64,000 bases of DNA, from NCBI GenBank assembly GCA_018609125.1, contig JABAYF010000010.1, positions 23,477 through 87,476 on the forward strand, given 5' to 3'. Position 1 is the first letter of the stretch. The number at the start of each line of letters is the position of its first letter. This DNA is from Candidatus Nanopelagicales bacterium. Its GTDB lineage: Bacteria; Actinomycetota; Actinomycetes; S36-B12. Under the pieces are notes generated by a model. It ran no database searches. It was given only the letters and a program-made list of their open reading frames with translations, and was not told where the DNA came from. The translations under genes and the position numbers were made by a program. Of this stretch, positions 32,302 to 52,576 are shown piece after piece.

Positions 32302-33297
32302 ATGACCCTCGACCTGATCGCAACTAATGTCTTCTCAGTTCCGGTGCTTGCCTTTGCCCTCGGTCTATCGGCCGCGGCGATCAAAGCAGACTTGCGGCTA
32401 CCCGACGCTGCCTACCAAGCGATTTCGATCTACCTACTTTTGGCGATCGGGCTCAAGGGTGGTGTGGCTCTGCGCGAAGCCGATCTAGCCGAGGTTGCAG
32501 CGCCGGTGGCGGTGGCGATCATTCTCGGTGTCACCATCCCGATTCTGGCCTTTTTGGGCTTGCGGTTCCTCACCAAACTGGGCCCTGTCGATCGCGGCGC
32601 ACTGGCGGCCCACTACGGCTCCACATCTTTGGTCACCTTCACTGCCGCCCTGGTGTTTCTAGAATCGCTGAACGTGTCCTATGAGGGATACGTGGCCACG
32701 CTGTTGGCTATTTTGGAGATCCCAGGCATCCTGGTGGGCTTGCTGCTCGCCGGATCGATGAGCAAGAATCCCGCCGGGGCCGATGCGCCGTCTCGGCGCC
32801 GCTGGGCCGAATCGCTGCGCTAGGTGCTCACTGGCCGATCGGTGCTCCTGCTGGCCGGGGGTTTGGTGATGGGAGTGTTGACCGGTCCGGAAGGGTTCGT
32901 GCGTGTTGAGCCTTTCTTCGGCGGTCTCTTTATCGGTGTTCTGGCCCTGTTCCTGCTCGAAATGGGCATGTTGGCCGGGCGGCGCCTCGGCGATTTACGT
33001 CAGGCAGGCTTTGGGCTGGTTGTTTTCGCCATCGTCTTTCCCATTGTCGCGGGCGTCTTAGGGATCGGTGGTGGGTCGCTCGCTGGAATGTCGACCGGCG
33101 GCGCGATGGTGCTCGGTGTTCTCTGCGCCAGTGCTTCCTACATTGCTGCACCGGCCGCGGTTCGCCTCGCGTTGCCAACTGCCAATCCTGGTATCACCCT
33201 CACCGCCAGCCTCGGTATGACTTTTCCATTCAATCTCGTCATCGGCATCCCGCTGTACTGGGGTATCGCGCAATGGCTGGCACCGATACTGGGCTAG
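32302..33297 (+). pseudogene. sbtA: SbtA-family Na+-dependent bicarbonate transporter interrupted by an in-frame TAG at 32821-32823
   Basis: YLLLAIGLKGG, AAHYGSTSLVTF, FLLEMG, ASASYIAAPAA, TFPFNLVIGIPLY; reads ESLR*VLTGRSVLLL in one frame; pseudogene status uncertain. Confidence 0.8.
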
Positions 33298-33325
33298 CAC
33301 CAACCCAACATGCTAAGGACCTGTA

Positions 33326-33631
33326 ATGAGTGAGCTAAGTGAGGTGACCTGCGTGGTCATCGTTGCCGAGGCGATCGTTGAACCTCGACTGCTCGATGAT
33401 TTAGTCGCCTGCGGGGTGCGCGGGTGGACGCTGACCCCGGCACAGGGCCAGGGCCCACGCAACCGCGGAGTTAGCGAGATTGAGGGCGGCAGTATTCGGC
33501 TGGACGTCCTGGCATCCGACGCGGTTGTTGATCGCATCTGGCAGTTGCTCGATTCAGACTATTTTCACGACTACGCGGTGTCTGCGTGGTCGTATCCGGT
33601 TCGAGTGATGCGCACTGATCGCTACCGCTGA
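33326..33631 (+). CDS. sbtB: SbtB PII-like regulator
   Basis: IVAEAIVE, GVRGWT, GQG, DYF.DY, V.V.R; directly after sbtA. Confidence 0.85.
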   Translation: MSELSEVTCVVIVAEAIVEPRLLDDLVACGVRGWTLTPAQGQGPRNRGVSEIEGGSIRLDVLASDAVVDRIWQLLDSDYFHDYAVSAWSYPVRVMRTDRYR

Positions 33632-33838: not shown

Positions 33839-35341
33839 CTACGTTTGCGTGGGGAACCCAAGGTTAAGACCACCGTGGCTTGGGTCTAGCCAGCGGCTGG
33901 TCACCACTTTGCCGCGAGTGAAGAAGTTAACCCCTTCAAGGCCATGGGCGTGTGAGTCACCGAACAGGGAGTTCTTCCAGCCACCAAAGGAGTAGTAGGC
34001 CATCGGCACCGGGACGGGCACGTTGATGCCCACCATGCCCACCTCGACTTCATTTTGGAACCGCCGAGCCGCACCACCATCGTTGGTGAAAATTGCGGTG
34101 CCATTGCCGTAGGGATGATCATTGATCAGTGCCAGACCCTCGTCATAGGAGTTGACCCGGACGATGGACAGTACGGGTCCAAAGATCTCCTCCTGATAAA
34201 TCGACATGTCGGTTGTGACATGGTCAAAGAGTGTGGGGCCTAGCCAGAAACCCTCATCGGCGCCGTCGACCTCGATGCCGCGACCATCAACGACAAGGGT
34301 GGCGCCCTCCTTGGCACCTGCGGCTACGTAGGAGGCGACCTTGTCTCGATGCACACGTGTTACGAGCGGACCCATATCGCAACCGCGTCGACCATCGCCC
34401 GTGCGAAGGCGAGACATCCGCTCGGCAATCCCAGCCACGAGTTGATCGGCCACCGGCTCTACGGCTACCACAACGGAAATGGCCATGCACCGTTCACCTG
34501 CCGAACCGAAGCCGGCATTGACTGCCTGGTCTGCGGCAAGGTTGAGGTCTGCATCAGGCAGCACGAGCATGTGGTTCTTGGCGCCACCGAGTGCCTGCAC
34601 GCGCTTGCCGTGTGCGGTTCCTGTTTCGTACACGTAGCGAGCAATCGGGGTAGACCCGACGAAGGAGATGCTCTTGACGTCAGGGTGCGTGAGCAGGCCA
34701 TCCACCGCGACTTTGTCGCCGTGCAGCACGGTAAATACACCTTCGGGTAGCCCCGCCTTCGCCCAGAGTTGGGCGATGAAATTCGCCGCACTGGGGTCTT
34801 TTTCGCTGGGCTTAATTACCACGGAGTTACCGGCTGCAATGGCGATGGGGAAGAACCACATCGGCACCATTGCGGGGAAATTGAACGGTGAAATGACGCC
34901 GACGACCCCGAGCGGTTGGCGGATGGAATACACATCGACTCCGGTGGAAACTCCCTCGGAGAAGCCACCTTTGAGTAGCTGGGGAATCCCGCAGGCAAAC
35001 TCCACGACTTCAAGGCCACGCGTCACTTCCCCGAGTGAGTCGGCGAGTACCTTGCCGTGTTCGGCGGTGACGAGTGCGGCGAGTTCTTCACGATGAGCGT
35101 TGAGTAACTCGCGAAAGGCGAACAGGACCTGGGTGCGTTTTGTGAGTGATGATTCGCGCCAGGACAGATAGGCCTTTTTGGCTCCGGCAACGGCGGCATC
35201 GACAACCTCGGCGTCGGCGAAGGCCACATTGGCCGTGATCGCACCGGTGGCCGGGTCGTACACCTCACCAACCCGCGCGGGTGCACCGCTCCATTCTGTG
35301 CCGTTGATCCAGTGAGAAATAGTGGGTAGCAAAGAGGTCAT
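33839..35341 (-). CDS. mmsA: CoA-acylating (methyl)malonate-semialdehyde dehydrogenase
   Basis: PFNFPAMVPMW, KPSEKDP, FVGSTP, GGAKNH, GSAGERCMA, EEIFGP. Confidence 0.95.
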   Translation of the reverse strand: MTSLLPTISHWINGTEWSGAPARVGEVYDPATGAITANVAFADAEVVDAAVAGAKKAYLSWRESSLTKRTQVLFAFRELLNAHREELAALVTAEHGKVLADSLGEVTRGLEVVEFACGIPQLLKGGFSEGVSTGVDVYSIRQPLGVVGVISPFNFPAMVPMWFFPIAIAAGNSVVIKPSEKDPSAANFIAQLWAKAGLPEGVFTVLHGDKVAVDGLLTHPDVKSISFVGSTPIARYVYETGTAHGKRVQALGGAKNHMLVLPDADLNLAADQAVNAGFGSAGERCMAISVVVAVEPVADQLVAGIAERMSRLRTGDGRRGCDMGPLVTRVHRDKVASYVAAGAKEGATLVVDGRGIEVDGADEGFWLGPTLFDHVTTDMSIYQEEIFGPVLSIVRVNSYDEGLALINDHPYGNGTAIFTNDGGAARRFQNEVEVGMVGINVPVPVPMAYYSFGGWKNSLFGDSHAHGLEGVNFFTRGKVVTSRWLDPSHGGLNLGFPTQT

Positions 35342-35401
35342 GCCTGAATCGTATGTGCCCGGCCATGTCACATTTCAGCGGATCACCAATTCGTGTCTGG
35401 A

Positions 35402-35824
35402 CTACTCTTCGGCCACACCTTCGCGGGTCAATTCAACCTCGTAACTGGTGTTCGTGTCACCTAGCTCGATGTAGCGCACTGCCATGCGATCGGCATCGAC
35501 CACGCCGGAGAAGAACCCGTCAGTTTCGGTGAGCACAAAGGTGTTACCACCGATGCCTAATTGGCCCACCAGGGCATCTTGCTGGTCACTTCCCGCAGAT
35601 TCTTGGTACCCCCAGATGTTTCGCCCGTCCTGGGTTTCGATCACGATGCGCTCGGTCACGGTGGCCGTGGTGCCGTTGGCGAGAGGATAGGTGAACTCCC
35701 CGGTCCACGTACCAACCATGCTGACCGGTTCGGTCGACCCGGACGGGGCACAACCGGCCGCCGTTAGGAGCAGTGCTGCGGCGGCGGTCAGGACAGTGGC
35801 GCGCTTGACGCGGTGCATCATCAT
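35402..35824 (-). CDS. Hypothetical beta-rich lipoprotein
   Basis: Lipobox TAAGC, GTWTG motif; CAGACT 7 nt upstream of ATG suggests its own promoter. Confidence 0.65.
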   Translation of the reverse strand: MMMHRVKRATVLTAAAALLLTAAGCAPSGSTEPVSMVGTWTGEFTYPLANGTTATVTERIVIETQDGRNIWGYQESAGSDQQDALVGQLGIGGNTFVLTETDGFFSGVVDADRMAVRYIELGDTNTSYEVELTREGVAEE

Positions 35825-35846
35825 GTATGGCAGTCTGCCACTGTCG

Positions 35847-38744
35847 TTATGGAGCAGGTGCATCGTCTACGTAATAGGCCTTCATCTGGGGCATGACCGG
35901 ACGCATCATGAACGGCGGGCGCCGCAGCCCCTGCGCGTTGGGTCCCGGGCGCGTCTTGGCCATCCACTCCCGGTACACCTCGCGCGACTTTGCCGTGTCC
36001 ACCACCACATCGCCGTACTTATCTTCTTCATGGGCAGGTTCGATGCGTACGTGCTGATGCCAGCAGTGCATGCCTGACCAGGTGTCTGGGTGCACCGCGA
36101 AGGCAAGGTTTTGATGCACCCCTGGATCCTCCCAGTGGATGCGCATGGAGTCAGGATCGTCGCTGACGAACGGACGCACCCCTTCCCGATAGCGCAGCCG
36201 CCAACGGCCGTCGTCAAGTTGGCCCACCTGTACCTTTCCGCTCACCCAGCGCGATCCTGCGTCGTCGGTGGTGCGCCAGCGACCCATGTGGTGGGACAGG
36301 GCGCTTACCCCGGGTCGGATACCTTCCGTTGCCCAAATGCGTGCCACGAAGTGACCGATCTCGGTGCTGACGCGGACCATGTCGCCGGTGGCGAGGCCGA
36401 GCCGTTGGGCGTCCTTGCTGTTCATCCACATCGGGTGCTTATTGCTGATCTCGTTGAGGTACTTCGCGTTGCCCGACCTGGTGTGGATGAGAGTCGGTAG
36501 CCGAAACGTGGGCACCAGTAGCATCTCGTTGCTCTGCTCGGTGATCACGCTGTGGTGAACGTGGGATTTGATGTAGGTCGGCGTCGCATATTCCGGCCAC
36601 CCGAAATCGGCCATGGACGGTGAATACAACTCCAGTTTTCGTGACGGGGTCAGCCAGCCGGCGACTTCGGCACCGTCGTCCATCACGATCCCGACCGCAC
36701 CGGCTTCGCCCACGAGTGGTTTCTGGGTTTCTGGCGTGGTGGGTTTGCGCAGAACGCCGTCGGCATCGGCCACGGCGCCGTCTCGTTCAGCGTCGGTGAG
36801 CGGGCGTTCATCCTGGCGGTAGAGGCCGTTGACGATTTCTACCGCTCCGTACTTGCGCATGTATTCCAGCGGCGTAAGGCCTTCTCGTTCCGCCTTTTCT
36901 GGCAGCCCAGGTACGTTGTTATCGAAAACGTACCCGTAGTAGTCATCAATCGTAATTTTCTCGCCAGGACGTCCCGGTGCCTCAAAGTACTGCCGGATTC
37001 CTAGTGATCCGTCCGGGTCGATGCGCCAGGACATTTCGAACCAAAATTCGTTTTCTTCCCAGACTTCACCGGGATTGGCATCGCGGGTATCACTGATCTT
37101 CTCGCCCATTTTTTCCAGCGCCACGCGACGAACAGGCTGGCGGAATCCGAGCCACTTGCCCGCGTACTGCTCATAAGACTGGGTGTCGTGTCGTTCGGTG
37201 GAATGACCGAAGGGCAGGATGTAGTCCGCCCATAGCGCGGTTTCATTCCAGGTGGGTGTCATGGCCACGTGACAACCAACGAGATCTTCCCGCGAGAGTG
37301 CCTCGATCCAACTGAAACCGTCGGGATTGGTCCATACGGGGTTGTAGACGCGAGTGAAGTACACGTCGAGTTTGCCCCGGCCTTCAAGAAGAAAATGGGG
37401 TAGCAGGATGGACAATTCGTTGGTAGACAGCGGGAACTCTTTTGGCCACAGCAGTTCATTCCACGAGTCGTGTCCACCGGGCATGTTGGGGCCGTGAGGA
37501 ATGAACTTATTCCAGCCGTTGGGGCTGGTGCCACCTTCTTGGCCGATGCTGCCGGTTAACACGGTGAGGAAGAACAGTGCGCGGGCAACCGCCCAGCCAC
37601 CAAGGTTTCCCGCGCTGGCTGCACGCCAGGTGTGAGCGGCCAATTTGCCATTGCAGCCAGCCACAATGCGAGCAACTTTTTGCACTTGAGCCAACGGAAC
37701 CTTGCACTCTTGCGCAGCAAACTCAAGTGTGTAGTGGGCGTAGTCGTTGGTGAGCGCTTCTTTGAACGTCGTGAAGTCAGCCGAATCGACGTCGGGGTGC
37801 AGGCGTTCTAGATAGGTGCGCCAGTTGACCCAGCGTTGGATGTAGTTCCAGTCGACGGCGTTGGTGCGCATCAAGTACGCAGCGATCGCCAACAGCATGG
37901 CTGCTTCAGTGCCAGGCCATGGGGAGACCCATTCATCGGCGTGGGAGGCGGTATTGGAAAGGCGCGGATCTAGGACAATAAGTTTTGCTCCGCCGCGCAC
38001 CTTGGCATCCATGATGCGCTGTGCGTGCGGATTGAAATAGTGGCCGGATTCAAGGTGTGCAGAGAGCAGAAGAATCACGTTTGCGTTGGCATGGTCAGGG
38101 GAGGGGCGATCGTAGCCACCCCAGAGGGAATAGCCCAAACGTGCCCCGGCAGAGCAAATATTTGTGTGGGTGTTGTTGCCGTCAACCCCCCAGGCAAGCA
38201 GGACGCGCTCAATGAATCCGTCTTCGCCGTGGCGGCCCACGTGATACATGATTTCATTGCGTCGATCTTCAAGGATCGCTTTGCGAATGCGCCCGGCGAT
38301 ATCGTCCATGGCGTCATCCCAGGACACCTGCTCAAACTGGGCTGAACCGCGTGGACCGGTGCGCTTCATGGGGGTGAGGAGACGTTCGGGGTCTTGGGTC
38401 TGATTAATCGTGGCCGGGCCCTTGGCGCAGTTGCGCCCGCGCGAGCCAGGGTGGGCCGGGTTGCCCTCAATCTTGACAACCTCTTTTGTTTCGCGGTCAA
38501 CATAGGCCAGCAGTCCGCAACCTGATTCGCAGTTGAAACAGGTGGTGGGTACGAGCATGTAGTGCCGTCCCACCTTGCGTGGATGGGCTTTCGCGTCGTA
38601 CATCACCACGTCATCCCAGGTGTCCACCGGCGGGTAGTTCGAGACCGTCTCCCGCACGCGCAGACCGTGGTGTTCAGGTGCTTGCGGATCCACCGGTGAA
38701 GCAGCAGGGCCGGTAGCGACGGACTCGGTTGGTCGTGGACTCAT
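35847..38744 (-). CDS. Mo/W-bis-PGD oxidoreductase catalytic subunit (Psr/Phs/Arr-like), no Tat signal
   Basis: CFNCESGC...NCAKG Fe-S motif, HTNICS Cys ligand region, DPRLSNTA, ADYILP, HTRSGN..LNEI; no twin-arginine leader. Confidence 0.9.
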   Translation of the reverse strand: MSPRPTESVATGPAASPVDPQAPEHHGLRVRETVSNYPPVDTWDDVVMYDAKAHPRKVGRHYMLVPTTCFNCESGCGLLAYVDRETKEVVKIEGNPAHPGSRGRNCAKGPATINQTQDPERLLTPMKRTGPRGSAQFEQVSWDDAMDDIAGRIRKAILEDRRNEIMYHVGRHGEDGFIERVLLAWGVDGNNTHTNICSAGARLGYSLWGGYDRPSPDHANANVILLLSAHLESGHYFNPHAQRIMDAKVRGGAKLIVLDPRLSNTASHADEWVSPWPGTEAAMLLAIAAYLMRTNAVDWNYIQRWVNWRTYLERLHPDVDSADFTTFKEALTNDYAHYTLEFAAQECKVPLAQVQKVARIVAGCNGKLAAHTWRAASAGNLGGWAVARALFFLTVLTGSIGQEGGTSPNGWNKFIPHGPNMPGGHDSWNELLWPKEFPLSTNELSILLPHFLLEGRGKLDVYFTRVYNPVWTNPDGFSWIEALSREDLVGCHVAMTPTWNETALWADYILPFGHSTERHDTQSYEQYAGKWLGFRQPVRRVALEKMGEKISDTRDANPGEVWEENEFWFEMSWRIDPDGSLGIRQYFEAPGRPGEKITIDDYYGYVFDNNVPGLPEKAEREGLTPLEYMRKYGAVEIVNGLYRQDERPLTDAERDGAVADADGVLRKPTTPETQKPLVGEAGAVGIVMDDGAEVAGWLTPSRKLELYSPSMADFGWPEYATPTYIKSHVHHSVITEQSNEMLLVPTFRLPTLIHTRSGNAKYLNEISNKHPMWMNSKDAQRLGLATGDMVRVSTEIGHFVARIWATEGIRPGVSALSHHMGRWRTTDDAGSRWVSGKVQVGQLDDGRWRLRYREGVRPFVSDDPDSMRIHWEDPGVHQNLAFAVHPDTWSGMHCWHQHVRIEPAHEEDKYGDVVVDTAKSREVYREWMAKTRPGPNAQGLRRPPFMMRPVMPQMKAYYVDDAPAP

Positions 38745-38789
38745 CGGGACAACCTTTCTGGCGCGCAGCGGGAATGACGTGGCGTGCGA

Positions 38790-40328
38790 TCAGGACAGGG
38801 GTGGGTCTTGCCCGGCCATAACAAAGACACGCTCGTGGGCGAGGAGTGCCGGTTGCACCAGGAGACCCGCGATCAATCCGAGCCAGATGGGTGCTCCGAG
38901 TGCAACAGCGAGTCCAAGGCCACCGCCCACAGCTGACATCGCGATGGAACCCCACCAGAACTGCTGGCGGTAGCGGCCGTGGGTAATGGCATGGGCGGCG
39001 ATCTGGGCGTTTCGGGTGCTGTGGCTGCCACCAAAGTCGACCGCGGTGACCAGCAGGTGTGCGCCTACCCCGACCACCAGGGCCCACGCCAGCCAGCGTT
39101 GGCTTGCGGTGTCGGAAAGAATCATGGACAGGGCGAGCAGTACACCGGCTCCGACCATGACAGCCTGTGCCTGCAGATGCCAGAAAAGAGCGGGTGACTG
39201 CCACAGGTCGCGGCCCTCTGCCTGACCGAAAAGGAATGCGGTGTAGCCGGCCACCATGATCGCGGCGGGCACTGCGGGCCAGGCGAGAACAGAGATGACC
39301 GAGGTCCAGTCGAGAATTCCGAGCGCATCGGCCACGCCGACGAGGAGCCATAGGCCGGCAATGCCAGCACCTAGGCCGAGGAAGATGCCCCCGAGGGCCA
39401 GCCACGATCGTCGGTTGATCTTGCGTGGATCAAGCAGGAACAGGAAGCGTTTGGGCTGCTTCAAGTCCCAGATGAGTAGTGCAGCGGTGATGAGCAGGAA
39501 TCCCACAGCGATCGCGGGGGCGGCAATGGTGACCAGACTGGTCCGGTCGGTAGTGAACAAGACCAGCAGTGCACCCAGGAGCAGGCCACCGGCGGAAATC
39601 GACTTGGTCCACAGGTAGGTCCAGACTTTCCAGCCCCAGGGTCGAGGGTGGGCGGTATTGAGAGTCGTGCGCGCCATGGACATCGGATCACCGGGTAGCT
39701 CCGCAGCGGTTTCTAGGCGCAGCGGATCAGCATCGGCCCACAGGTAGGTCTGATCCACCGGTGCAGCGAGTGGATCCAGCGTTGTGTGGTCGGCACCGAC
39801 GTAATACACATTCGGCTTTGTGCCCTGCTCCGGTGTGCGAACGCTGACCGGTTCGATGCTGAGAAACTTCGAGATACCACTGGTGGGATCGTCAATGTCC
39901 CCCATCCAGATGGACTCGGTAGGACATACCTGTACACAGGCGGGTTCTAAGCCCTGATCAATGCGGTGGGCACAGAAGTTACATTTGGCGGCCGTGTGGG
40001 TGTTTTCGTCGATATAAATCGCATCGTAAGGGCAAGCTTGCATGCACATTTTGCACCCGATGCACAGTTCATTGTCGAAGTCGACGATGCCGTCGGGGCG
40101 AATAAACAGTGCCTCGGTGGGGCAACTCTTCACGCAGGGCGCATCAGTGCAGTGATTGCATCGAAGGACGGCCATTTCTCTTGTGGTCGAGGGAAACTCG
40201 CCCTTTTCGACGTACTTCACCCAGGTACGAAATTGACCGACCGGAATGTCATGCTCAGTCTTGCAGGCCACCGTGCAGGCGTGGCAGCCGATACAGGTCC
40301 GTTGGTCAATGGCGAATCCATAGCGCAC
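38790..40328 (-). CDS. Fused 4x[4Fe-4S] ferredoxin + NrfD/PsrC-type membrane anchor
   Basis: CIGCHACTVAC, CNHC..PCVKSCP, CIGCKMCMQACP, KCNFC..CVQVCP; then PWGW..YLW, DLKQPKRF, SW, about eight TM. Confidence 0.9.
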   Translation of the reverse strand: MRYGFAIDQRTCIGCHACTVACKTEHDIPVGQFRTWVKYVEKGEFPSTTREMAVLRCNHCTDAPCVKSCPTEALFIRPDGIVDFDNELCIGCKMCMQACPYDAIYIDENTHTAAKCNFCAHRIDQGLEPACVQVCPTESIWMGDIDDPTSGISKFLSIEPVSVRTPEQGTKPNVYYVGADHTTLDPLAAPVDQTYLWADADPLRLETAAELPGDPMSMARTTLNTAHPRPWGWKVWTYLWTKSISAGGLLLGALLVLFTTDRTSLVTIAAPAIAVGFLLITAALLIWDLKQPKRFLFLLDPRKINRRSWLALGGIFLGLGAGIAGLWLLVGVADALGILDWTSVISVLAWPAVPAAIMVAGYTAFLFGQAEGRDLWQSPALFWHLQAQAVMVGAGVLLALSMILSDTASQRWLAWALVVGVGAHLLVTAVDFGGSHSTRNAQIAAHAITHGRYRQQFWWGSIAMSAVGGGLGLAVALGAPIWLGLIAGLLVQPALLAHERVFVMAGQDPPLS

Positions 40329-40334
40329 GGGAGG

Positions 40335-40565
40335 TCACTTCTTCCGAATGTAGAACTTCAACACGTTGCCGTCTTCAGCGGACTCAACGATTTCATTGCC
40401 GGTCTGTGTCGCCCACGCCGGAATATCTGACCGAGAGCCGGCATCGGTAGCCTCCACCAGCATCACTTCGCCAACAGCCAGATCTTTCATTCCCTTGGCC
40501 GTCATGAGTACCGGCATGGGACAACTCATCCCTTTGGTGTCAACGGTTTTCCTAACGTCGGTCAT
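40335..40565 (-). CDS. tusA: TusA-family sulfur carrier
   Basis: VDTKGMSCPMP, ATDAGSRSDIPAW, FYIRK. Confidence 0.9.
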   Translation of the reverse strand: MTDVRKTVDTKGMSCPMPVLMTAKGMKDLAVGEVMLVEATDAGSRSDIPAWATQTGNEIVESAEDGNVLKFYIRKK

Positions 40566-40596
40566 GGTGCCTCCATCGGCTATGAGAAGTGGTTGG

Positions 40597-41130
40597 TTAG
40601 ATAAAAAGATTTATCTGCGACTTAGACATAGATTGCAAGGCGGTGGCGGCGCCGACCGGTGTGCCGAGGCCACCGATCATCTGTTCGGGCTTAATGCCTA
40701 GTAGGTCCATCGTCATTTGGCAGGGCCACAGGTTCACGCCCATGTCCTGGCAGATTTCCAGTAAATCCTCCGGGGGCAACAGGTTGTTCTTCTTGGCCAC
40801 CTTGCGCATCATCCAACGCCCCGCCCCACCCATGTTCATGCGGGACAGTTTCGCCTTTTTCATACCCGGCGGGTTCATGCCGGCCAGTGCTTTGGTCATG
40901 GCGTCGTACCCGGTGATTCGCACGTCGTCTCGGACGAGTGGAAACAGGCCCCAGAACGTGAAGAAGACCGTAACGTTCATTCCGGTGGCCGCACCGGTGG
41001 AGCTGAGAATCAAGGTCGGCCACAGTTTGTCGAGGTCACCGCTCCAGGCGATGATCGTCATCGACTGCGGATCGGTCACGTCAGATCCAGTCGTATTCGT
41101 GGAGATGTCTGCGGGGTCGTTGTCAGGCAT
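40597..41130 (-). CDS. DsrE2/YrkE-like sulfurtransferase
   Basis: SGDLDK, VFFTFWGL, LSRMNMGGAG, CQMTMDLLG; GAAGGAAAGG RBS before ATG 41130. Confidence 0.88.
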   Translation of the reverse strand: MPDNDPADISTNTTGSDVTDPQSMTIIAWSGDLDKLWPTLILSSTGAATGMNVTVFFTFWGLFPLVRDDVRITGYDAMTKALAGMNPPGMKKAKLSRMNMGGAGRWMMRKVAKKNNLLPPEDLLEICQDMGVNLWPCQMTMDLLGIKPEQMIGGLGTPVGAATALQSMSKSQINLFI

Positions 41131-41247
41131 GGTCAACCTTTCCTTCGTGCGGGGCGAGACCGACATGATGTGTTGCCATCAATCTAGGACCGACCAATTT
41201 CGCTAAAGGCTAGCGCCCCGGTAGTGAAAACATTAGCGTTTGCGCAT

Positions 41248-41267
41248 ATTCGCAGGAGATTGTGAAT
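41248..41267. promoter_or_regulatory. Imperfect inverted repeat, candidate ArsR operator in the divergent promoter
   Basis: ATTCGCA-GGAGAT-TGTGAAT (one mismatch) between the divergent sulfur operons. Confidence 0.45.
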
Positions 41268-41284
41268 TAGCGAGCGGAGGCATC

Positions 41285-42415
41285 GTGTCCACAGCCCTCA
41301 CCCCGGCCGAACTGTTTGCCCACATTGATGCCGGCGATGTTCCATTGATTTTGGATGTGCGTAATCAAAATGAGTTTGAATCCTGGCGCATAGAGGGCAC
41401 GCGCGAGGTGCCCACGCGCAATGTGCCGATTTGGCAGGCCGTAGAAGAGGTGGAGGACCTAGCCGCCCAGATACCCGATGGAACCATCGTGGTGTGCGCA
41501 CACGGCAATGGCAGCGATCTGCTCATCGAGATGCTCGCGCAAGCGGGCCGTAGCGTGACCAATCTTGTCGGGGGAACGGCCGCCTGGGCGGAACTACTGA
41601 TCTGCCTACCGCTACCGGGGCTGCCTGAACCATTCATTGGGTGGCAGATTCAACGCCCGGCTAAGGCATGTTTGTCCTACGTCATCGGAGTTCCCGGACA
41701 TGCTTGCATCGTGGTAGACCCGGCAAGGTTTCTTCAGGAGTATCTCGACCTAGCTGCACGGGCGGACATGACCATTACGCACGTGATTGATACCCACGTG
41801 CATGCCGATCACATCAGCGGTGGACCCCAACTAGCCGAACGCGTGAACGCGACCTATCACGTGCCGATGGAAGACACCGGTGGCTCAACCCCTTTTGCGA
41901 ATGAGCCACTCATTGATGGGGCCGCCCTCGACCTTGGCGCGGCGAGCATTGAGGTGCTGGCCGTCAAAATGCCCGGCCACACGCCCGGAACCACGTGTAT
42001 TCACATCCCAGGCCACCTGCTTCTCACCGGGGACACGGTGTTTGTTCGCGGCGTGGGTCGACCCGATCTCACCGGCCAGGCTGATGACCTGGCTCAGCAG
42101 CTGTTTCACACTGTCCACGACGTGTTGCGTCCGCTTGAGCCGACAACGATGGTGCTTCCCGCGCACTGGACGTTCCTCAACGAAATCGGCACTGATGGGT
42201 TGGTGAAAACCACCCTGGGCGAAGTTTTCAATTCGACCTTGATGTCCGAAGCGGATATGGCGGCCTTCGTTCGTGAAATCGTGACGAGTTTGCCAGCCGC
42301 GCCGCAGATCTACGACACGATCCGGTTGGTGAACTCCGGGCAACCGGCGACGGCGGCGGAAATGGAGACGCTAGAGATCGGTAAGAATCAGTGTGCTGCC
42401 TCAACCACGACCTAG
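41285..42415 (+). CDS. Rhodanese + metallo-beta-lactamase (persulfide dioxygenase-like, YrkH type)
   Basis: LDVRN, VVCAHG (rhodanese Cys), CLSY, THVHADHISG, PGHT, TGD, PAH, C-terminal EIGKNQCA. Confidence 0.88.
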   Translation: MSTALTPAELFAHIDAGDVPLILDVRNQNEFESWRIEGTREVPTRNVPIWQAVEEVEDLAAQIPDGTIVVCAHGNGSDLLIEMLAQAGRSVTNLVGGTAAWAELLICLPLPGLPEPFIGWQIQRPAKACLSYVIGVPGHACIVVDPARFLQEYLDLAARADMTITHVIDTHVHADHISGGPQLAERVNATYHVPMEDTGGSTPFANEPLIDGAALDLGAASIEVLAVKMPGHTPGTTCIHIPGHLLLTGDTVFVRGVGRPDLTGQADDLAQQLFHTVHDVLRPLEPTTMVLPAHWTFLNEIGTDGLVKTTLGEVFNSTLMSEADMAAFVREIVTSLPAAPQIYDTIRLVNSGQPATAAEMETLEIGKNQCAASTTT

Positions 42416-42466
42416 GGGCACATCGCGGCAATGGGGTGCGGGGGAAACGTATGAGAGGCTGCGTCC

Positions 42467-42805
42467 ATGGACCGGGAGACAGTTGAAGAGATTCATCGCC
42501 TACACGCGCGACTGTGTCAGGCCATTGCCGATCCCAAGCGGCTGCTGTTGATCAGTGAGTTGCGCGCGGGTGCGATGAGTGTCGGTGATCTTGCCGCGTC
42601 TTTGGGGATCAGTCAGTCCAACTGTTCCCAGCATCTGGCCATATTGCGCGATCGCGGTGTGGTTGATTCCCGAAAGATCGGAACCACGGTGCAGTATTCG
42701 CTGCGCGGAACCAAGGTACTCGCCGCTATCGATCTGCTGCGTGATTTCATGTCTGAAGAAATGAGCAATCAGGCTGAGATCGGCCTTATCGCGCGCAGCG
42801 GTTAA
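42467..42805 (+). CDS. ArsR/SmtB-family repressor
   Basis: CQAIADPKRL, SVGDL, SQSNCSQHLAILR, VQYSL. Confidence 0.92.
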   Translation: MDRETVEEIHRLHARLCQAIADPKRLLLISELRAGAMSVGDLAASLGISQSNCSQHLAILRDRGVVDSRKIGTTVQYSLRGTKVLAAIDLLRDFMSEEMSNQAEIGLIARSG

Positions 42806-45516
42806 GCGGTCGAATGATACGACGTCAGCGATTGCAAAATTGCTGCCCGACCAGCTTCGAGCCGCGCAATGGGCACCCGAAAGGGTGAGCAGGAAACATA
42901 GTCGATGCCGACTGAGTGAAAGAAGTGGATTGAATCGGGGTCGCCGCCGTGTTCACCGCACACCCCGAGTTTGAGATCGGGACGTGTTGCGCGGCCTTTC
43001 TCCGCGGCAATGCGAATCAATTCTCCCACGCCATCAATATCGAGACTTTCAAACGGCGACACGTTGAAGATGCCCTTGTCTAAGTACTGGGCGAAGAAGG
43101 CGCCCTCAACGTCATCCCGAGAAAATCCCCACGCAGTTTGGGTGAGGTCATTCGTGCCGAAGGAGAAAAACTCCGCCGCCTCGGCAATACGTCGGGCGGT
43201 GAGGGCAGCTCGGGGGAGTTCGATCATCGTGCCGATGGGCATCGACAACTCAACGCCGTGGGCGACTGCGACCTCGTCAACGATGTGGCCTACCTCGTCA
43301 CGCACGAGGTGAAGCTCCATGACGGACCCCACCAGCGGAATCATGATTTCGACGTGAGGCGCGCCACCGTCAAGGCTGCGTTGCGCGGCTGCTTCAGCGA
43401 TGGCCCGAACCTGCAGGGCGTAAAGGCCGGGCATGACCAGGCCGAGTCGAACGCCACGCAGGCCTAGCATGGGGTTCGTTTCATGGAGGCGTTCTACCGC
43501 GCCGAGCAGGCGTAACTCTCGATCATCGGGCGTTCCACGTTCCGCAGCGAGGGCAACGCGCACCTTGAGTTCAGCGAGATCGGGCAGGAACTCGTGCAGC
43601 GGCGGATCAAGGAGGCGAATCGTGACGGGCAGGTCATCCATGGCCGCCAGCAAATCGATGAAATCTGCCCGCTGCAGTGGGAGCAGTTCGGCGAAGACGT
43701 CCTCACGCTCCTGCGCTGTTTCGGCGAGAACAAGCCGTTCGATCAAAATACGGCGGTCACCGAGAAACATATGTTCGGTGCGGCACAGGCCGATGCCCTC
43801 AGCACCCAGAGTGCGGGCGCGCACAGCATCGGGGGCGGTGTCTGCGTTGGTGCGCACATTCAAGCCGCGGACCGCGTCTGCGTGACGCAGAATTCGATCG
43901 ACAGAGGTAACCAGTTCGGTGATCTCGGTATCGGCGTCAGCCAGGGCGACATCAAGACCAGATTCCAGATATGTCACAACAGGTGATGCAACGACGGGCA
44001 CTTCACCAATGAATACCTGACCGGTGGAACCGTCCAGGGACAGCATCTGGCCTTCGATCACCACGTGACCACCGGCTGTCGCCTGACGACCGGATGGATC
44101 CACATCAAGTGCCTCCGCACCAACGATGCAGGTGGTGCCCATGCCACGTGCGACAACAGCGGCATGTGATGTTTTGCCACCGCGTGAGGTCAAAATGCCA
44201 ACGGCAGCAATCATTCCCTCCAGGTCATCGGGGTTCGTTTCGCGGCGAATCAGCACAACAGCTTCGCCGCGCGCTGCCCATTCGGTGGCGGTGGCCGAGT
44301 CGAAAACGGCGCGCCCAACGGCAGCACCCGGGCTGGCGGCGAGACCGGTGGTGAGGTCTTGGCGTGGGCTGCGCGGATCGAACTGCGGGAACATCAGTTT
44401 GGTTAGTTGCTCTCCGTTAACGCGGGCGAGTGCTTCATCCATGGTGATGAGGTGTTCATCCACCAGTTGAGTCGCGATCCGAAAAGCTGCGGCCGCGGTT
44501 CGTTTGCCGATGCGAGTTTGCAACATCCACAGGCGACCTCGTTCAACGGTGAACTCGATGTCACACAGATCCCGATAGTGGGTTTCCAGCCGCCGCATGA
44601 TCACTTGAAGTTCGGCGTAGGCACCGGGGTCAATTTCAGCCATCTCAGCCAGCGTGGCCGTGTTGCGAATGCCCGCGACCACGTCTTCGCCCTGGGCGTT
44701 GGTGAGATAGTCGCCGTAGGCTCCCACTTTGCCGGTGGCGGGATCTCGCGTAAAGGCCACGCCGGTGCCAGAATCTGCGCCCAGGTTGCCAAACACCATC
44801 GAGACGATATTCACCGCGGTGCCAAGGTCGTGGGGAATTCGTTCGCGGCGCCGGTACAGATTGGCCCGTGGGGTGTTCCATGACGAGAACACCGCGACGG
44901 TCGCCATGTCGAGTTGTTCACGCGGATCCTGGGGAAAGGGGCGGCCGGAGTGTTCCAAAACGATGGCCTTGTAAGTCTCCACCAACTCTTGCAAAGACTC
45001 AGTGGAAAGGTCTGCATCCAAGGTGACGCCCTGGGCTACCTTGGCCGCATCGAAGGCGGCCTCGAATGTGCCCGGTTCCACGTGAAGCACGGTGCGCCCG
45101 AACATGGAAATCAAGCGCCGGTAGGAATCCCAGGCGAAGCGGGCGTCACCGGTCGCTGCGGTCAGGCCCTCCACCGAGTAGTCGTTGAGTCCAACATTGA
45201 GAACAGTTTCCATCATGCCCGGCATTGAGAAACGAGCGCCGGAGCGAACACTGACCAGGAGAGGATCGGTCACATCGCCGAGTCGGCGGCCAAGTTCAAC
45301 TTCTAGGCGGCGCAGCGCCATGGTGACCTGTACGCGGAGGTCGTCTGGGACTTCGCCGCGACGTAAAAACTCTCGACAGGCCTCGGTGGTGATCGTAAAT
45401 CCCGGTGGCACCGGCAACCCGAGCCGGGTCATTTCGGCAAGGTTCGCGCCTTTGCCACCGAGCAGATCCGCATCTTCGCGGCCGCCCTCGCTGAAGTCAT
45501 AGACGTACTTGGTCAT
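42802..45516 (-). CDS. ppdK: Pyruvate, phosphate dikinase
   Basis: GGKGANL, SVRSG, GGKTSHAA, GLCRTEHM, SFGTNDL, CGEHGG. Confidence 0.97.
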   Translation of the reverse strand: MTKYVYDFSEGGREDADLLGGKGANLAEMTRLGLPVPPGFTITTEACREFLRRGEVPDDLRVQVTMALRRLEVELGRRLGDVTDPLLVSVRSGARFSMPGMMETVLNVGLNDYSVEGLTAATGDARFAWDSYRRLISMFGRTVLHVEPGTFEAAFDAAKVAQGVTLDADLSTESLQELVETYKAIVLEHSGRPFPQDPREQLDMATVAVFSSWNTPRANLYRRRERIPHDLGTAVNIVSMVFGNLGADSGTGVAFTRDPATGKVGAYGDYLTNAQGEDVVAGIRNTATLAEMAEIDPGAYAELQVIMRRLETHYRDLCDIEFTVERGRLWMLQTRIGKRTAAAAFRIATQLVDEHLITMDEALARVNGEQLTKLMFPQFDPRSPRQDLTTGLAASPGAAVGRAVFDSATATEWAARGEAVVLIRRETNPDDLEGMIAAVGILTSRGGKTSHAAVVARGMGTTCIVGAEALDVDPSGRQATAGGHVVIEGQMLSLDGSTGQVFIGEVPVVASPVVTYLESGLDVALADADTEITELVTSVDRILRHADAVRGLNVRTNADTAPDAVRARTLGAEGIGLCRTEHMFLGDRRILIERLVLAETAQEREDVFAELLPLQRADFIDLLAAMDDLPVTIRLLDPPLHEFLPDLAELKVRVALAAERGTPDDRELRLLGAVERLHETNPMLGLRGVRLGLVMPGLYALQVRAIAEAAAQRSLDGGAPHVEIMIPLVGSVMELHLVRDEVGHIVDEVAVAHGVELSMPIGTMIELPRAALTARRIAEAAEFFSFGTNDLTQTAWGFSRDDVEGAFFAQYLDKGIFNVSPFESLDIDGVGELIRIAAEKGRATRPDLKLGVCGEHGGDPDSIHFFHSVGIDYVSCSPFRVPIARLEAGRAAILQSLTSYHSTA

Positions 45517-51005: not shown

Positions 51006-51103
51006 CCTCTGGGTGGTTGGAGTGGTCGTCACCCCAACTGCATTGATTCGTCGACGTGCCTCGGACACCTCGTTGGCCGAGCGCTGCTGCAGCAGGAGAC
51101 ATC

Positions 51104-52576
51104 ATGACCTTTTCTTCAGCCCCCCATGTCATCAACATTGACTCGACCGGCCTCGGTGACCGTAGTTACATCGCCCACGACGGTACGCATGCGTTGGTGG
51201 TCGACCCCCAGCGCGATATTGATCGGGTTGAGCAGGTTCTTGCCGAGCATGGGCTCACCGTGACTCATGTCGCCGAAACGCATGTGCACAACGATTACGT
51301 CACCGGCGGACTGCAACTTGCGTCTCGCCACGGCGCCACCTACGTGGTACCCGCTGATGTAGATCTTGACTTTGACGCCACGCCCATGGGTGAGGGCGCA
51401 TCCTTTGAAGTGGGCACGATGACCGTCGATGTCATCCACACTCCCGGCCACACCCCCCACCACATTTCCTTCGCCGTGCGGTGTGCTGATCACCCGGGCG
51501 TCGTGTTCACCGGCGGGTCGCTGCTCTACGGCAGTGTGGGCCGTACCGATCTGGTGGCGCCAGACCTGGCGGTGCGCCAGTCCCACGATCAGTGGCATTC
51601 GGTGCGTCGTCTCGCAGCCACCTTGGCCGATGAAACCGCCATCTACCCCACCCATGGTTTCGGATCATTCTGCGCGGCTACTCAAGCCCAGGGTTTGTCG
51701 TCAACAATCGGTAACGAAAAAATCATCAACCCGGCTCTGACCGAGGAGGAGTCAGAGTTCGTTGACACGATGCTGGCCGGGCTCGATGTTTTCCCCGCCT
51801 ACTACGCCCACATGGGCCCGGCCAATGCAGCGGGACCGGCCGATGTTGATCTCATGATGCCCGCCGAGGCTAACCCGCAAATGCTGCGCGAACGCATCAT
51901 GCAGGGTGAATGGGTGGTGGATCTGCGCTCCCGCGAAGTTTTCGCTGCCGGACATGTGCCAGGAACAATGAACTTTGACCTCGACGGGGCATTCATCAAC
52001 TACCTGGCCTGGATGATGCCCTGGGGCGCTCCGGTCACGTTGTTGGGTTCCACGCCGGAGCAGGTTCAAGCAGCACATCGTGAACTGGTGCGCGTGGGTA
52101 TTGACAACACGGTGGGCCAAGCCACCGGCGGCCCAGATTTTTGGTTGACCGATCCCGCCGATGCCCGCACTCTTCAGCAGGTGGACTTTGCCGGGCTATC
52201 CGCCATCGTGGCAACGGATTCCGATGCTTTCCTACTCGACACCCGACAGATTTTGGAGTGGGAATCTGGCCATGTTGCTGGGGCCACCTTCATGCCCTTT
52301 TACGACGTGCCCGATCGGCTCGGTGAAATTCCCAGGGATCGCCCAGTCTATGTGTACTGCGGCTCCGGCTACCGCGCCGCAGCGGTGGCTTCACTACTAC
52401 AAAATGAGGGTTTCAACAATATCGTGCACGTCAACGATGACTTCCCGAATGCAGCCACAGCAGGGCTCCAGGTCGTTGCTGAGCAGGCGCCCGAGCGTGA
52501 ACCAGGCTGGACCTGGATCGCCTCGCGAGCAACGGTTCGACAGTTCGCACCGAAGGCACCCGCAGACTCAAAGTAG
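51104..52576 (+). CDS. Persulfide dioxygenase-like MBL + two rhodanese domains (CstB/Blh-like)
   Basis: VVDPQRD, ETHVHND, TPGHT, GRTDL, PTHGFGSFC; Cys-less middle rhodanese; C-terminal YCGSGYRA. Confidence 0.9.
   Translation: MTFSSAPHVINIDSTGLGDRSYIAHDGTHALVVDPQRDIDRVEQVLAEHGLTVTHVAETHVHNDYVTGGLQLASRHGATYVVPADVDLDFDATPMGEGASFEVGTMTVDVIHTPGHTPHHISFAVRCADHPGVVFTGGSLLYGSVGRTDLVAPDLAVRQSHDQWHSVRRLAATLADETAIYPTHGFGSFCAATQAQGLSSTIGNEKIINPALTEEESEFVDTMLAGLDVFPAYYAHMGPANAAGPADVDLMMPAEANPQMLRERIMQGEWVVDLRSREVFAAGHVPGTMNFDLDGAFINYLAWMMPWGAPVTLLGSTPEQVQAAHRELVRVGIDNTVGQATGGPDFWLTDPADARTLQQVDFAGLSAIVATDSDAFLLDTRQILEWESGHVAGATFMPFYDVPDRLGEIPRDRPVYVYCGSGYRAAAVASLLQNEGFNNIVHVNDDFPNAATAGLQVVAEQAPEREPGWTWIASRATVRQFAPKAPADSK

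Follow-up and report, generated by a model that had tools for sequence, protein, structure and literature searches.

A ferredoxin–NrfD fusion and a leaderless molybdenum subunit in a divergent sulfur gene cluster of an estuarine actinobacterium: a candidate cytoplasm-facing sulfite oxidoreductase

We analysed 64,000 nucleotides of the genome of a Candidatus Nanopelagicales bacterium (contig JABAYF010000010.1, positions 23,477 to 87,476; hereafter the window), where a divergent cluster of six genes joins sulfur carriers, a persulfide-dioxygenase-like protein and a regulator to a two-gene redox enzyme composed of a molybdenum bis-pyranopterin guanine dinucleotide (Mo-bisPGD) subunit and a ferredoxin::NrfD fusion. 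What appears new here is a fused two-polypeptide complex iron-sulfur molybdoenzyme, predicted to face the cytoplasm and belonging to an unnamed clade, in company with a gene set resembling the cst clusters for sulfide detoxification. As for its function, we favour a SoeABC-like sulfite:menaquinone oxidoreductase working downstream of a persulfide dioxygenase, an assignment made by analogy to which we give an even chance of being correct.

The Mo subunit matched the Pfam domains Molybdop_Fe4S4, Molybdopterin and Molydop_binding with 50.1, 76.0 and 54.0 bits, respectively, all above the cut-offs, and on these matches we assign it to the Mo-bisPGD (dimethyl sulfoxide reductase, or MopB) superfamily. 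Both motifs pointed out in an earlier reading of the sequence alone (hereafter the sequence-only reading), CFNCESGC and HTNICS, were found in its translation. The four cysteines of the [4Fe-4S] motif for cluster FS0 (C69, C72, C76 and C106) were invariant in 30 sequences, and Cys197 within HTNICS, the putative Mo ligand, was conserved in at least 90% of the 30 sequences. Cys197 is aligned to a cysteine in both ArrA (6cz7) and PsrA (2vpw), which we take to be the Mo ligand in these enzymes, and ArrA and PsrA were also the best solved relatives of the subunit (E about 1e-30; 9.6e-30 for PsrA). The scores with the curated models were 181 bits for PhsA (cut-off 694), 98.7 bits for TtrA (cut-off 1750) and 103.6 bits for ArrA (cut-off 1600). 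An identity with PhsA/PsrA was rejected on the PhsA score, the placement of PhsA outside the 100/100-supported clade of the Mo subunit and the lack of a twin-arginine translocation (Tat) leader; TtrA was discarded on its score and the position of Proteus TtrA outside the clade of the Mo subunit, and ArrA, compared by model and structure-sequence scores rather than in the tree, on its curated cut-off.

The second polypeptide comprises a four-cluster ferredoxin at approximately residues 1-200, followed at about 232-507 by an NrfD/PsrC-type anchor of eight helices (NrfD domain PF03916, 60.4 bits). All 16 cysteines of the ferredoxin, arranged in four groups of four, were invariant in 29 sequences. 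In the AlphaFold2 model, the eight long anchor helices had a predicted local distance difference test (pLDDT) value above 90, and Foldseek matched the anchor to ActC and PsrC (probability 1.00; target-normalised TM-score of 0.72 for PsrC) and the Fe-S region to PsrB (38% identity). The Fe-S domain was modelled at pLDDT below 50, and the packing of this domain (B) on the anchor (C) is unreadable from the model; the best curated model for the Fe-S part was TtrB (197 bits, cut-off 416). This make-up, a catalytic subunit A with a four-cluster B and an NrfD-type C, is that of a predicted complex iron-sulfur molybdoenzyme distributed over only two polypeptides, A and B::C.

Neither redox subunit bears a twin-arginine leader, just as had been claimed before. 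Upstream of the predicted start of the Mo gene, only 15 further codons are open (980 vs. 965 amino acids), with the end of the fusion gene 45 nt away; an RR motif is missing from the N-terminus, and a hydropathy scan gave no hydrophobic stretch there. Because the frame is too short and both features are missing, no Tat leader is possible on the Mo subunit. In the fusion, 11 residues precede the first cluster cysteine and the alignment to TtrB sets in at profile position 43; all distinct full-length fusion orthologues extracted (62/62) likewise begin 11 residues before the first cysteine. In contrast, the relatives P0130, P0150, P0180 and P0400 from the same clade bear leaders of the RRxF(L/I)K type. 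Since B and C form a single chain, the N-terminus of the anchor lies on the side of the Fe-S domain. According to a crude hydropathy scan, the inner loops contain 4, 7, 1, 3 and 1 Lys/Arg residues (16) and the outer loops 1, 0, 1 and 0 (2), a bias toward the Fe-S-domain side that fits a cytoplasmic Fe-S domain. The catalytic and Fe-S parts are thus predicted to face the cytoplasm, and the two-subunit, cytoplasm-facing architecture suggested by the sequence-only reading withstood the analysis. The B::C fusion makes the cytoplasmic orientation directly readable from sequence in this enzyme family. As to SoeABC, passages of PMC8076601 take SoeAB to face the N-side and expect SoeC to be inverted in the membrane, so far as a hypothesis.

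A Pfam/NCBIfam profile search of the window located all six genes within 35847-42805 at the coordinates given in Table 1, which bears out the proposed layout: a tight minus-strand operon in the order dsrE2-like, tusA, fusion and Mo gene, with intergenic gaps of 31, 6 and 45 nt, is divergent from the genes for the rhodanese-metallo-beta-lactamase (MBL) protein and the ArsR regulator. The spacer between the two arms presumably holds both promoters of the divergon and the regulator site; a consensus promoter scan gave no site in these 73 nt, and no operator was identified there. Consensus promoter-like sites were fewer than in shuffled sequences, and the count of terminator-like sites was within the shuffle range. 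Each of the six genes is partly covered by contigs from the RNA libraries of three studies (identity at least 95%, mostly at least 99%), and one contig spans the divergent spacer; DNA carry-over is possible, so this is not proof of transcription or of a single transcript, and gaps in the cover carry no meaning. Near-identical DNA is present in estuary and marine metagenomes.

Table 1. Coordinates (positions in the window) of the sulfur gene cluster and of a second MBL/rhodanese fusion
Feature	Position	Strand	Basis
DsrE2-like (DsrE/F/H family) putative sulfurtransferase, 189 aa	40597-41166	-	PF13686, 150.8 bits
TusA-family sulfur carrier, 76 aa	40335-40565	-	PF01206, 79.2 bits
Ferredoxin::NrfD fusion, 512 aa (P0002)	38790-40328	-	Fer4_11 residues 55-144, NrfD 224-464
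Mo-bisPGD catalytic subunit, 965 aa (P0001)	35847-38744	-	Molybdop_Fe4S4 + Molybdopterin + Molydop_binding
Rhodanese-MBL fusion, 391 aa, persulfide-dioxygenase-like	41240-42415	+	Rhodanese 21-118, Lactamase_B 143-309
ArsR/SmtB-family regulator, 112 aa	42467-42805	+	HTH_5
Divergent intergenic spacer, 73 nt	41167-41239	.	coordinates
Second MBL/rhodanese fusion (MBL first, rhodanese last)	51056-52576	+	Pfam Lactamase_B + Rhodanese

To learn how widely the gene pair is accompanied by sulfur genes, we turned to the best 80 of 590 confirmed loci, a set biased to close relatives, and counted the 37 with at least 5.5 kb upstream and at least 3 kb downstream of the Mo gene; 21 of these were close (at least 72% identity) and 16 distant (below 72%). 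The fusion gene was directly upstream of the Mo gene in 37/37 loci. If the genes for persulfide-dioxygenase-like MBL/rhodanese fusions, TauE, SulP, TusA, DsrE2-like proteins and SQR-like proteins (resembling sulfide:quinone oxidoreductase) are counted as sulfur-linked, one or more of them were present at 33 of the 37 loci, including 12 of the 16 distant ones; as a rough yardstick, the query families have no more than a few matches in the whole genome of 2.15 Mb. The linkage with sulfur genes expected by the sequence-only reading was therefore found, but that with tusA and dsrE2 proved narrower: the TusA, DsrE2-like, rhodanese-MBL and ArsR genes each occurred at 19/37 loci, namely at 19 of the 21 close and none of the 16 distant loci, and tusA and dsrE also stand beside the module in Rhodococcus jostii RHA1. 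The distant loci contained MBL-rhodanese genes (7), SulP (5), TauE (2) and SQR-like genes (2), as well as Mrp/NBP35 (12), GntR/UTRA (9) and DUF202 (7); over all 37 loci, TauE was found at nine, SulP at ten and SQR-like genes at two. Directly downstream of the Mo gene and on the same strand, Mrp/NBP35 was encoded at 15/54 loci and TauE at 8/54. TauA-like (NMT1) binding proteins are encoded in the flanks of L025 and L027, together with a sulfatase in the former and with an ABC ATPase and a class-III aminotransferase in the latter, and the Thermomicrobium module is accompanied by a CsoR-type "metal-sensitive" regulator.

In R. jostii RHA1, the whole cluster resides on the linear plasmid pRHL3 (L087, NC_008271.1, 213249-234077), where an MBL gene is divergent from those for DsrE, TusA, the fusion, the Mo subunit and Mrp; its surroundings also hold genes for two ArsR proteins, a thioredoxin, an MFS transporter and three additional MBL proteins. 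The plasmid location suggests that the cluster moves between genomes, and RHA1 represents a culturable, genetically tractable host of the module. Several accessory genes were seen in passing. Paired small DUF202 (YidH-like) membrane proteins are encoded beside the module at seven of the 16 distant loci and in RHA1 (pairs at L041, L043, L044, L051, L053 and L087), and the Mrp/NBP35 (ApbC-like) Fe-S carrier ATPase gene also follows the Mo gene in RHA1 and Natrinema (Mrp/NBP35 loci L043, L050, L051, L053, L054, L057, L087 and L091). No TorD-type chaperone gene was seen beside the cytoplasmic forms; one is present with the Sulfurovum and Azoarcus homologues, where NrfD is a separate gene.

Over 8000 relatives of the Mo subunit were scored, all without functional names, and the nearest named ones come from metagenome-assembled genomes (MAGs) of Candidatus Nanopelagicales and other Actinomycetota (83-92% identity). 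Orthologues (E at most 1e-150) were present in 39 of the 401 sampled Actinomycetota genomes, a count that takes in the window's own genome (G000) and one unpublished genome (G120), and in 32 of the 254 genera. A tblastn search of plasmids revealed the pair of fusion and Mo genes on pRHL3 of RHA1 (69.8% identity), on the Thermomicrobium roseum megaplasmid (57%) and on haloarchaeal plasmids (49-54%); the plasmid records annotate the fusion as a single gene whose product has about 506 to 607 amino acids.

The maximum-likelihood tree (42 rows and 952 columns; IQ-TREE, LG+G4; FdnG and NasA as the outgroup) was preceded by quick versions, and three long-branched paralogues from the same genome were removed after the first run. 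The Mo subunit was placed inside a 26-row clade with a support of 100/100 and a stem of 0.73, which takes in the actinobacterial family, Thermomicrobium and Natrinema, MAG members from Dormibacterota, Acidobacteriota, Chloroflexota and Thermodesulfobacteriota, and the longer Tat-leader relatives P0130, P0150, P0180 and P0400 (Sulfolobaceae). Outside this clade are E. coli PhsA and DmsA, Proteus TtrA (2039 bits on the TtrA model NF011567) and a Psr-like group that includes a protein named thiosulfate/polysulfide reductase by JGI, besides the outgroup. A tree of the DMSO-reductase family had been called for by the sequence-only reading, and among the clades in ours the Mo enzyme does not fall in any characterised non-sulfur one; the tree was built without SoeA and SreA, and PsrA and ArrA were compared by pairwise score only (E about 1e-30). 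No member of the 26-row clade carries a functional name. P0130, P0150 and P0180 had no curated-model match at 1e-40, and searches with P0128 and P0130 returned generic names only. The sisters with Tat leaders (P0130, P0150, P0180, P0400 and the kin of P0130) are proteins of about 915 to 1280 amino acids, and the kin of P0130 occur in Myxococcota, Campylobacterota (Sulfurimonas, Nitrosophilus, Thiovulum) and Aquificota (Persephonella, Hydrogenothermus). Because these sister proteins have twin-arginine leaders, the clade must have changed the membrane side at least once, and such a large unnamed clade, represented in several soil phyla too, with both cytoplasmic members and Tat-exported sisters is a good system for studying how a respiratory enzyme switches sides.

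Turning to the partner proteins, TusA matched PF01206 above the cut-off (28.6 bits) and retains Cys15 of the CPMP motif in 35 of 35 sequences, its score with the E. coli-type TusA equivalog being below the threshold (51.9 vs. 78). A complex prediction for residues 34-957 of the Mo subunit with TusA, made without control runs, gave a score of 0.00, which speaks neither for nor against a contact of the two proteins. The name DsrE2 given to the product of the first gene stood only at the family level: PF13686 was matched and Cys149 was conserved in 34/34 sequences, but the protein missed the cut-off of the NCBIfam DsrE2 equivalog (79.3 vs. 210 bits) and a crude hydropathy scan detected no transmembrane segment. 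Its nearest solved relatives are 3pnx and 2qs7, the latter being named DsrE2B in the relevant passage of PMC11094781. For the MBL domain, the solved relatives 3tp9, 4ysb, 3r2u, ETHE1 (4chl) and BpPRF (5ve3) were all ahead of glyoxalase II (E of 1e-18 to 5e-14 for the last four vs. 4e-10), and the rhodanese Cys86 and the T-H-x-H-A-D-H positions were conserved in 32/32 sequences, with V187 at the x position in 23 of them. With its metal motif kept, the fusion thus appears nearer to the known persulfide dioxygenases of the ETHE1/CstB type than to glyoxalase II, and its earlier description as a rhodanese-persulfide dioxygenase gains support. A second MBL/rhodanese fusion, located 8 kb away, is 30% identical to the MBL-rhodanese protein flanking the Mo module in L051; it is of the type that flanks the module in 7/16 distant loci and may belong to the same pathway.

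The ArsR protein scored 79.5 bits with NF033788 (cut-off 55) and 50.8 bits with the BigR model (cut-off 155), and its nearest solved relatives are HlyU, NolR, NmtR, YgaV and BigR. Cys17 was conserved in 26 of 26 sequences and Cys53 in 11, and the printed alignments show other residues at the Cys positions of HlyU. The protein was not assigned to the persulfide-sensing BigR/SqrR/HlyU type, as the BigR cut-off was missed, the HlyU cysteine positions hold other residues and only Cys17 is conserved. The protein is presumed to be the repressor of the divergon.

The genome to which the window belongs (97.3% complete) gave no match to PF00174 (SUOX-type sulfite oxidase) or PF01077 (sirohaem sulfite/nitrite reductase), which at this completeness is not proof of absence. 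For sulfite made by a persulfide dioxygenase, no other enzyme was found; the organism may also depend on reduced sulfur, since no sirohaem sulfite/nitrite reductase was detected. Contig C7 carries an SQR-like gene that scored 224 bits with the type III SQR model (cut-off 525), and on contig C24 a TauE gene adjoins genes for a sulfatase and a GntR/UTRA regulator. The genome contains six Mo-bisPGD genes (L081-L086).

Taken together, these data are best explained if the Mo enzyme works like SoeABC, which it probably does as far as architecture and published description can be likened, the SoeA sequence itself standing outside the comparison. We infer the substrate from the context; the reaction direction, the identity of the quinone, sulfur transfer among the carriers and the signal of the regulator are inferred as well. 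In the proposed scheme, the SQR-like enzyme would form sulfane sulfur from sulfide; thiols, TusA, the rhodanese domain and the DsrE2-like protein would then carry this sulfur, which the MBL domain, acting as a persulfide dioxygenase, would oxidise to sulfite, and the Mo subunit would oxidise sulfite to sulfate. Electrons would pass from FS0 through the four clusters of the fusion (five Fe-S clusters in all) to menaquinone at the NrfD module and then to the respiratory chain, sulfate or surplus sulfite would exit via TauE- or SulP-type carriers, and the ArsR-type protein would control both arms of the divergon. Because the sulfite/sulfate couple is a much stronger reductant than menaquinone, it is the oxidation of sulfite that is feasible. 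A tusA gene next to the enzyme has a precedent, as tusA adjoins soeABC in some bacteria (PMC11507549, in a passage citing Dahl 2013). If this assignment is true, it supplies a candidate sulfite oxidiser for actinobacteria whose genome shows no SUOX-type or sirohaem enzyme, and a detoxification route through SQR and persulfide dioxygenase becomes a feeder of the quinone pool.

The SoeABC systems of Allochromatium vinosum, Aquifex aeolicus and Ruegeria pomeroyi resemble ours in their parts: the Mo-bisPGD subunit has a Cys ligand and an N-terminal Fe-S site, and it is joined by an Fe-S protein with four clusters and an NrfD-type anchor. They also have in common with ours the lack of export signals and an active site directed toward the cytoplasm. 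Unlike the three separate subunits of SoeABC, encoded in the order A-B-C, B and C are here one polypeptide encoded upstream of A at every counted locus. SoeA is close to the Mo subunit in length, which, along with the cytoplasmic location and the Cys at the ligand position, hints at kinship; the BC-A order, the fusion and the absence of Actinobacteria from a survey of SoeC hint against it. A sulfite-producing context, to which tusA can adjoin, is a further shared feature (sections of PMC8076601, PMC10100899 and PMC11507549), and the bSreA/SoeA lineage, described by Wells et al. in part of PMC10100899 as a large unappreciated radiation with few archaeal members, also hints in favour.

Several points weigh against sulfite oxidation by a SoeABC-like enzyme. 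The genes are ordered BC-A, and it is ttrBCA and srdBCA that have the order B-C-A, the soeABC order being A-B-C. A plain sulfite dehydrogenase needs no tusA or dsrE2 in its operon. Four of the 37 loci (L035, L045, L047 and L054) have no sulfur-linked neighbour, the loci are mutually related, so that the counts overstate the independent support, and TauE and SulP are broad anion-transporter families. The KEGG-based survey in PMC8076601, in the portion relevant here, lists SoeC only in Proteobacteria, three Clostridia and Aquificae, that is, in none of our host phyla (Actinomycetota, Thermomicrobiota and haloarchaea), and a passage of PMC11507549 reports that the SoeABC proteins of Beggiatoa were undetected under aerobic conditions, where the persulfide dioxygenase acts. 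A weaker point comes from the best 150 of the 50%-identity representatives (down to 248 bits), of which 22 near-full-length ones were examined: none of the 20 looked up was recognisable as SoeA, but only five of them had a source name, in no case a functional one, so that this neither shows nor excludes the presence of SoeA. No NCBIfam model or solved structure of SoeA was found among the matches of the Mo subunit, and the names in the ESM Atlas were generic. As for candidate SoeA proteins among the plasmid tblastn matches, those from Thioclava, Allorhizobium, Tritonibacter, Loktanella and Variovorax were rejected as other enzymes, and those from Pseudosulfitobacter and Sulfitobacter as annotated formate dehydrogenases.

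Instead of oxidising sulfite, the enzyme could be a cytoplasm-facing reductase of the Psr/Phs/Ttr kind, in which menaquinol would reduce polysulfide, persulfide, tetrathionate or thiosulfate in order to remove reactive sulfur species; we consider this unlikely. Reductases do indeed supply the top curated models (PhsA for subunit A and TtrB for the Fe-S part), ArrA and PsrA come first among the solved relatives, and ttrBCA has its genes in the same order. However, the PhsA and TtrB scores are far below the cut-offs, PhsA, TtrA and the Psr-like group lie outside the clade, polysulfide reduction by menaquinol is thermodynamically poor, and the neighbours are of an oxidative or export character (persulfide-dioxygenase-like, SQR-like, TauE and SulP). 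In favour of the reductive direction, the SoeA relative from Aquifex was originally reported to be a sulfur reductase, according to a passage of PMC10100899.

PsrABC of Thermus thermophilus (2vpw-2vpz) and PhsABC share with our enzyme the Cys ligand and the A/B/C logic, and PsrABC is among its best solved relatives; unlike it, both are Tat-exported, periplasm-facing enzymes, the C subunit of Phs is a cytochrome b, and PhsA belongs elsewhere in the tree. TtrBCA has the B-C-A order, and TtrB is the best model for the Fe-S part, but Ttr bears a Tat leader and Proteus TtrA falls outside the clade.

A further alternative, which we hold to be somewhat less probable still, is that the substrate is sulfur bound to a carrier: once loaded by the rhodanese and the DsrE2-like protein, TusA would deliver its persulfide or thiosulfonate directly to the Mo site, where it would be oxidised without O2, in a role like that of rDsr or sHdr in classical sulfur oxidisers. 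This would account for the tight operon that the dsrE2-like gene and tusA form with the enzyme genes (gaps of 31 and 6 nt), for the preservation of this placement in RHA1 and at 19 of the 21 close loci, and for the conserved carrier cysteines of both proteins. On the other hand, tusA and dsrE2 are beside the module in 0/16 distant loci, where MBL-rhodanese genes are found in seven, the neighbouring persulfide-dioxygenase-like gene already explains the oxidation of sulfane sulfur, and we know of no Mo-bisPGD enzyme acting on a protein-bound persulfide. In support of such a role, tusA and dsrE2 accompany the cytoplasmic sulfane-oxidising systems of sulfur oxidisers (parts of PMC11094781). The same source allows a comparison with the rhd-tusA-dsrE2 relay of Dsr- and sHdr-type oxidisers: here too, three kinds of sulfurtransferase with their active cysteines kept stand by a putative cytoplasmic sulfur-oxidising enzyme, the differences being an MBL domain joined to the rhodanese and a DsrE2-like protein that misses the DsrE2 equivalog cut-off. 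No dsr or shdr genes were seen beside the operon, the search for them having been confined to these surroundings rather than the whole genome.

In its boldest form, which strikes us as distinctly improbable, the two-gene enzyme would be the founder of a third cytoplasmic system for sulfane-sulfur oxidation beside rDsr and sHdr. It would be supplied directly by the DsrE2-like protein and TusA with sulfur in the form of a protein-bound persulfide or thiosulfonate, oxidise this at the Mo site without O2 and pass the electrons to menaquinone. Were this true, streamlined aquatic actinobacteria would gain respiratory energy from sulfide or organic sulfur, and so would Rhodococcus, Thermomicrobium and the haloarchaea bearing the module.

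That the substrate is not a sulfur compound at all but formate or an arsenic, selenium or nitrogen oxyanion, the sulfur genes being adjacent by chance or through shared regulation, is very improbable. In its favour, some database names label relatives "formate dehydrogenase", the regulator is of the ArsR family and TusA-like proteins also serve selenium metabolism (YedF model, 36.5 bits). Against it, FdnG and NasA form the outgroup, DmsA lies outside the clade, the score with the ArrA model (104 bits) is far from the cut-off (1600), the scanned flanks showed no selenium, ars or fdh-accessory genes, and sulfur-linked genes occur at 33/37 loci. The probability left over by sulfite oxidation and these three rivals belongs to something not yet conceived.

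Returning to sulfite oxidation, the context of the enzyme recalls the Gram-positive cst clusters, which comprise CstR, a TusA/rhodanese protein, the persulfide dioxygenase-rhodanese CstB, SQR and TauE. Just as in these clusters, a persulfide-dioxygenase-like MBL/rhodanese fusion is here combined with TusA- and DsrE-like carriers and a small repressor, and TauE and an SQR-like gene are found in the genome or at related loci. The cst clusters end in the export of sulfite or thiosulfate; unlike them, the cluster described here includes a respiratory Mo enzyme that would oxidise the product and recover the electrons. No description of the fused actinobacterial enzyme was found in open-access papers and bioRxiv, a search that left subscription journals and most supplements uncovered.

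The genes around the cluster were also inspected. A reading frame for a 153-aa protein with one hydrophobic N-terminal segment and without a Pfam/NCBIfam match (35402-35863, minus strand) shares 17 nt with the end of the Mo gene, and its homologues were found at only two of the 80 loci (L001 and L068). It is followed on the operon strand by the gene for a CoA-acylating methylmalonate-semialdehyde dehydrogenase (33839-35371, minus strand). At the other border, a pyruvate,phosphate dikinase gene (42802-45516, minus strand) is convergent with arsR and ends 4 nt inside it; L001, the closest locus, is the only one where the dikinase and dehydrogenase genes accompany the cluster. Farther out, positions 32824-33631 on the plus strand contain the end of an Sbt_1-type bicarbonate transporter gene and then a P-II-like gene.

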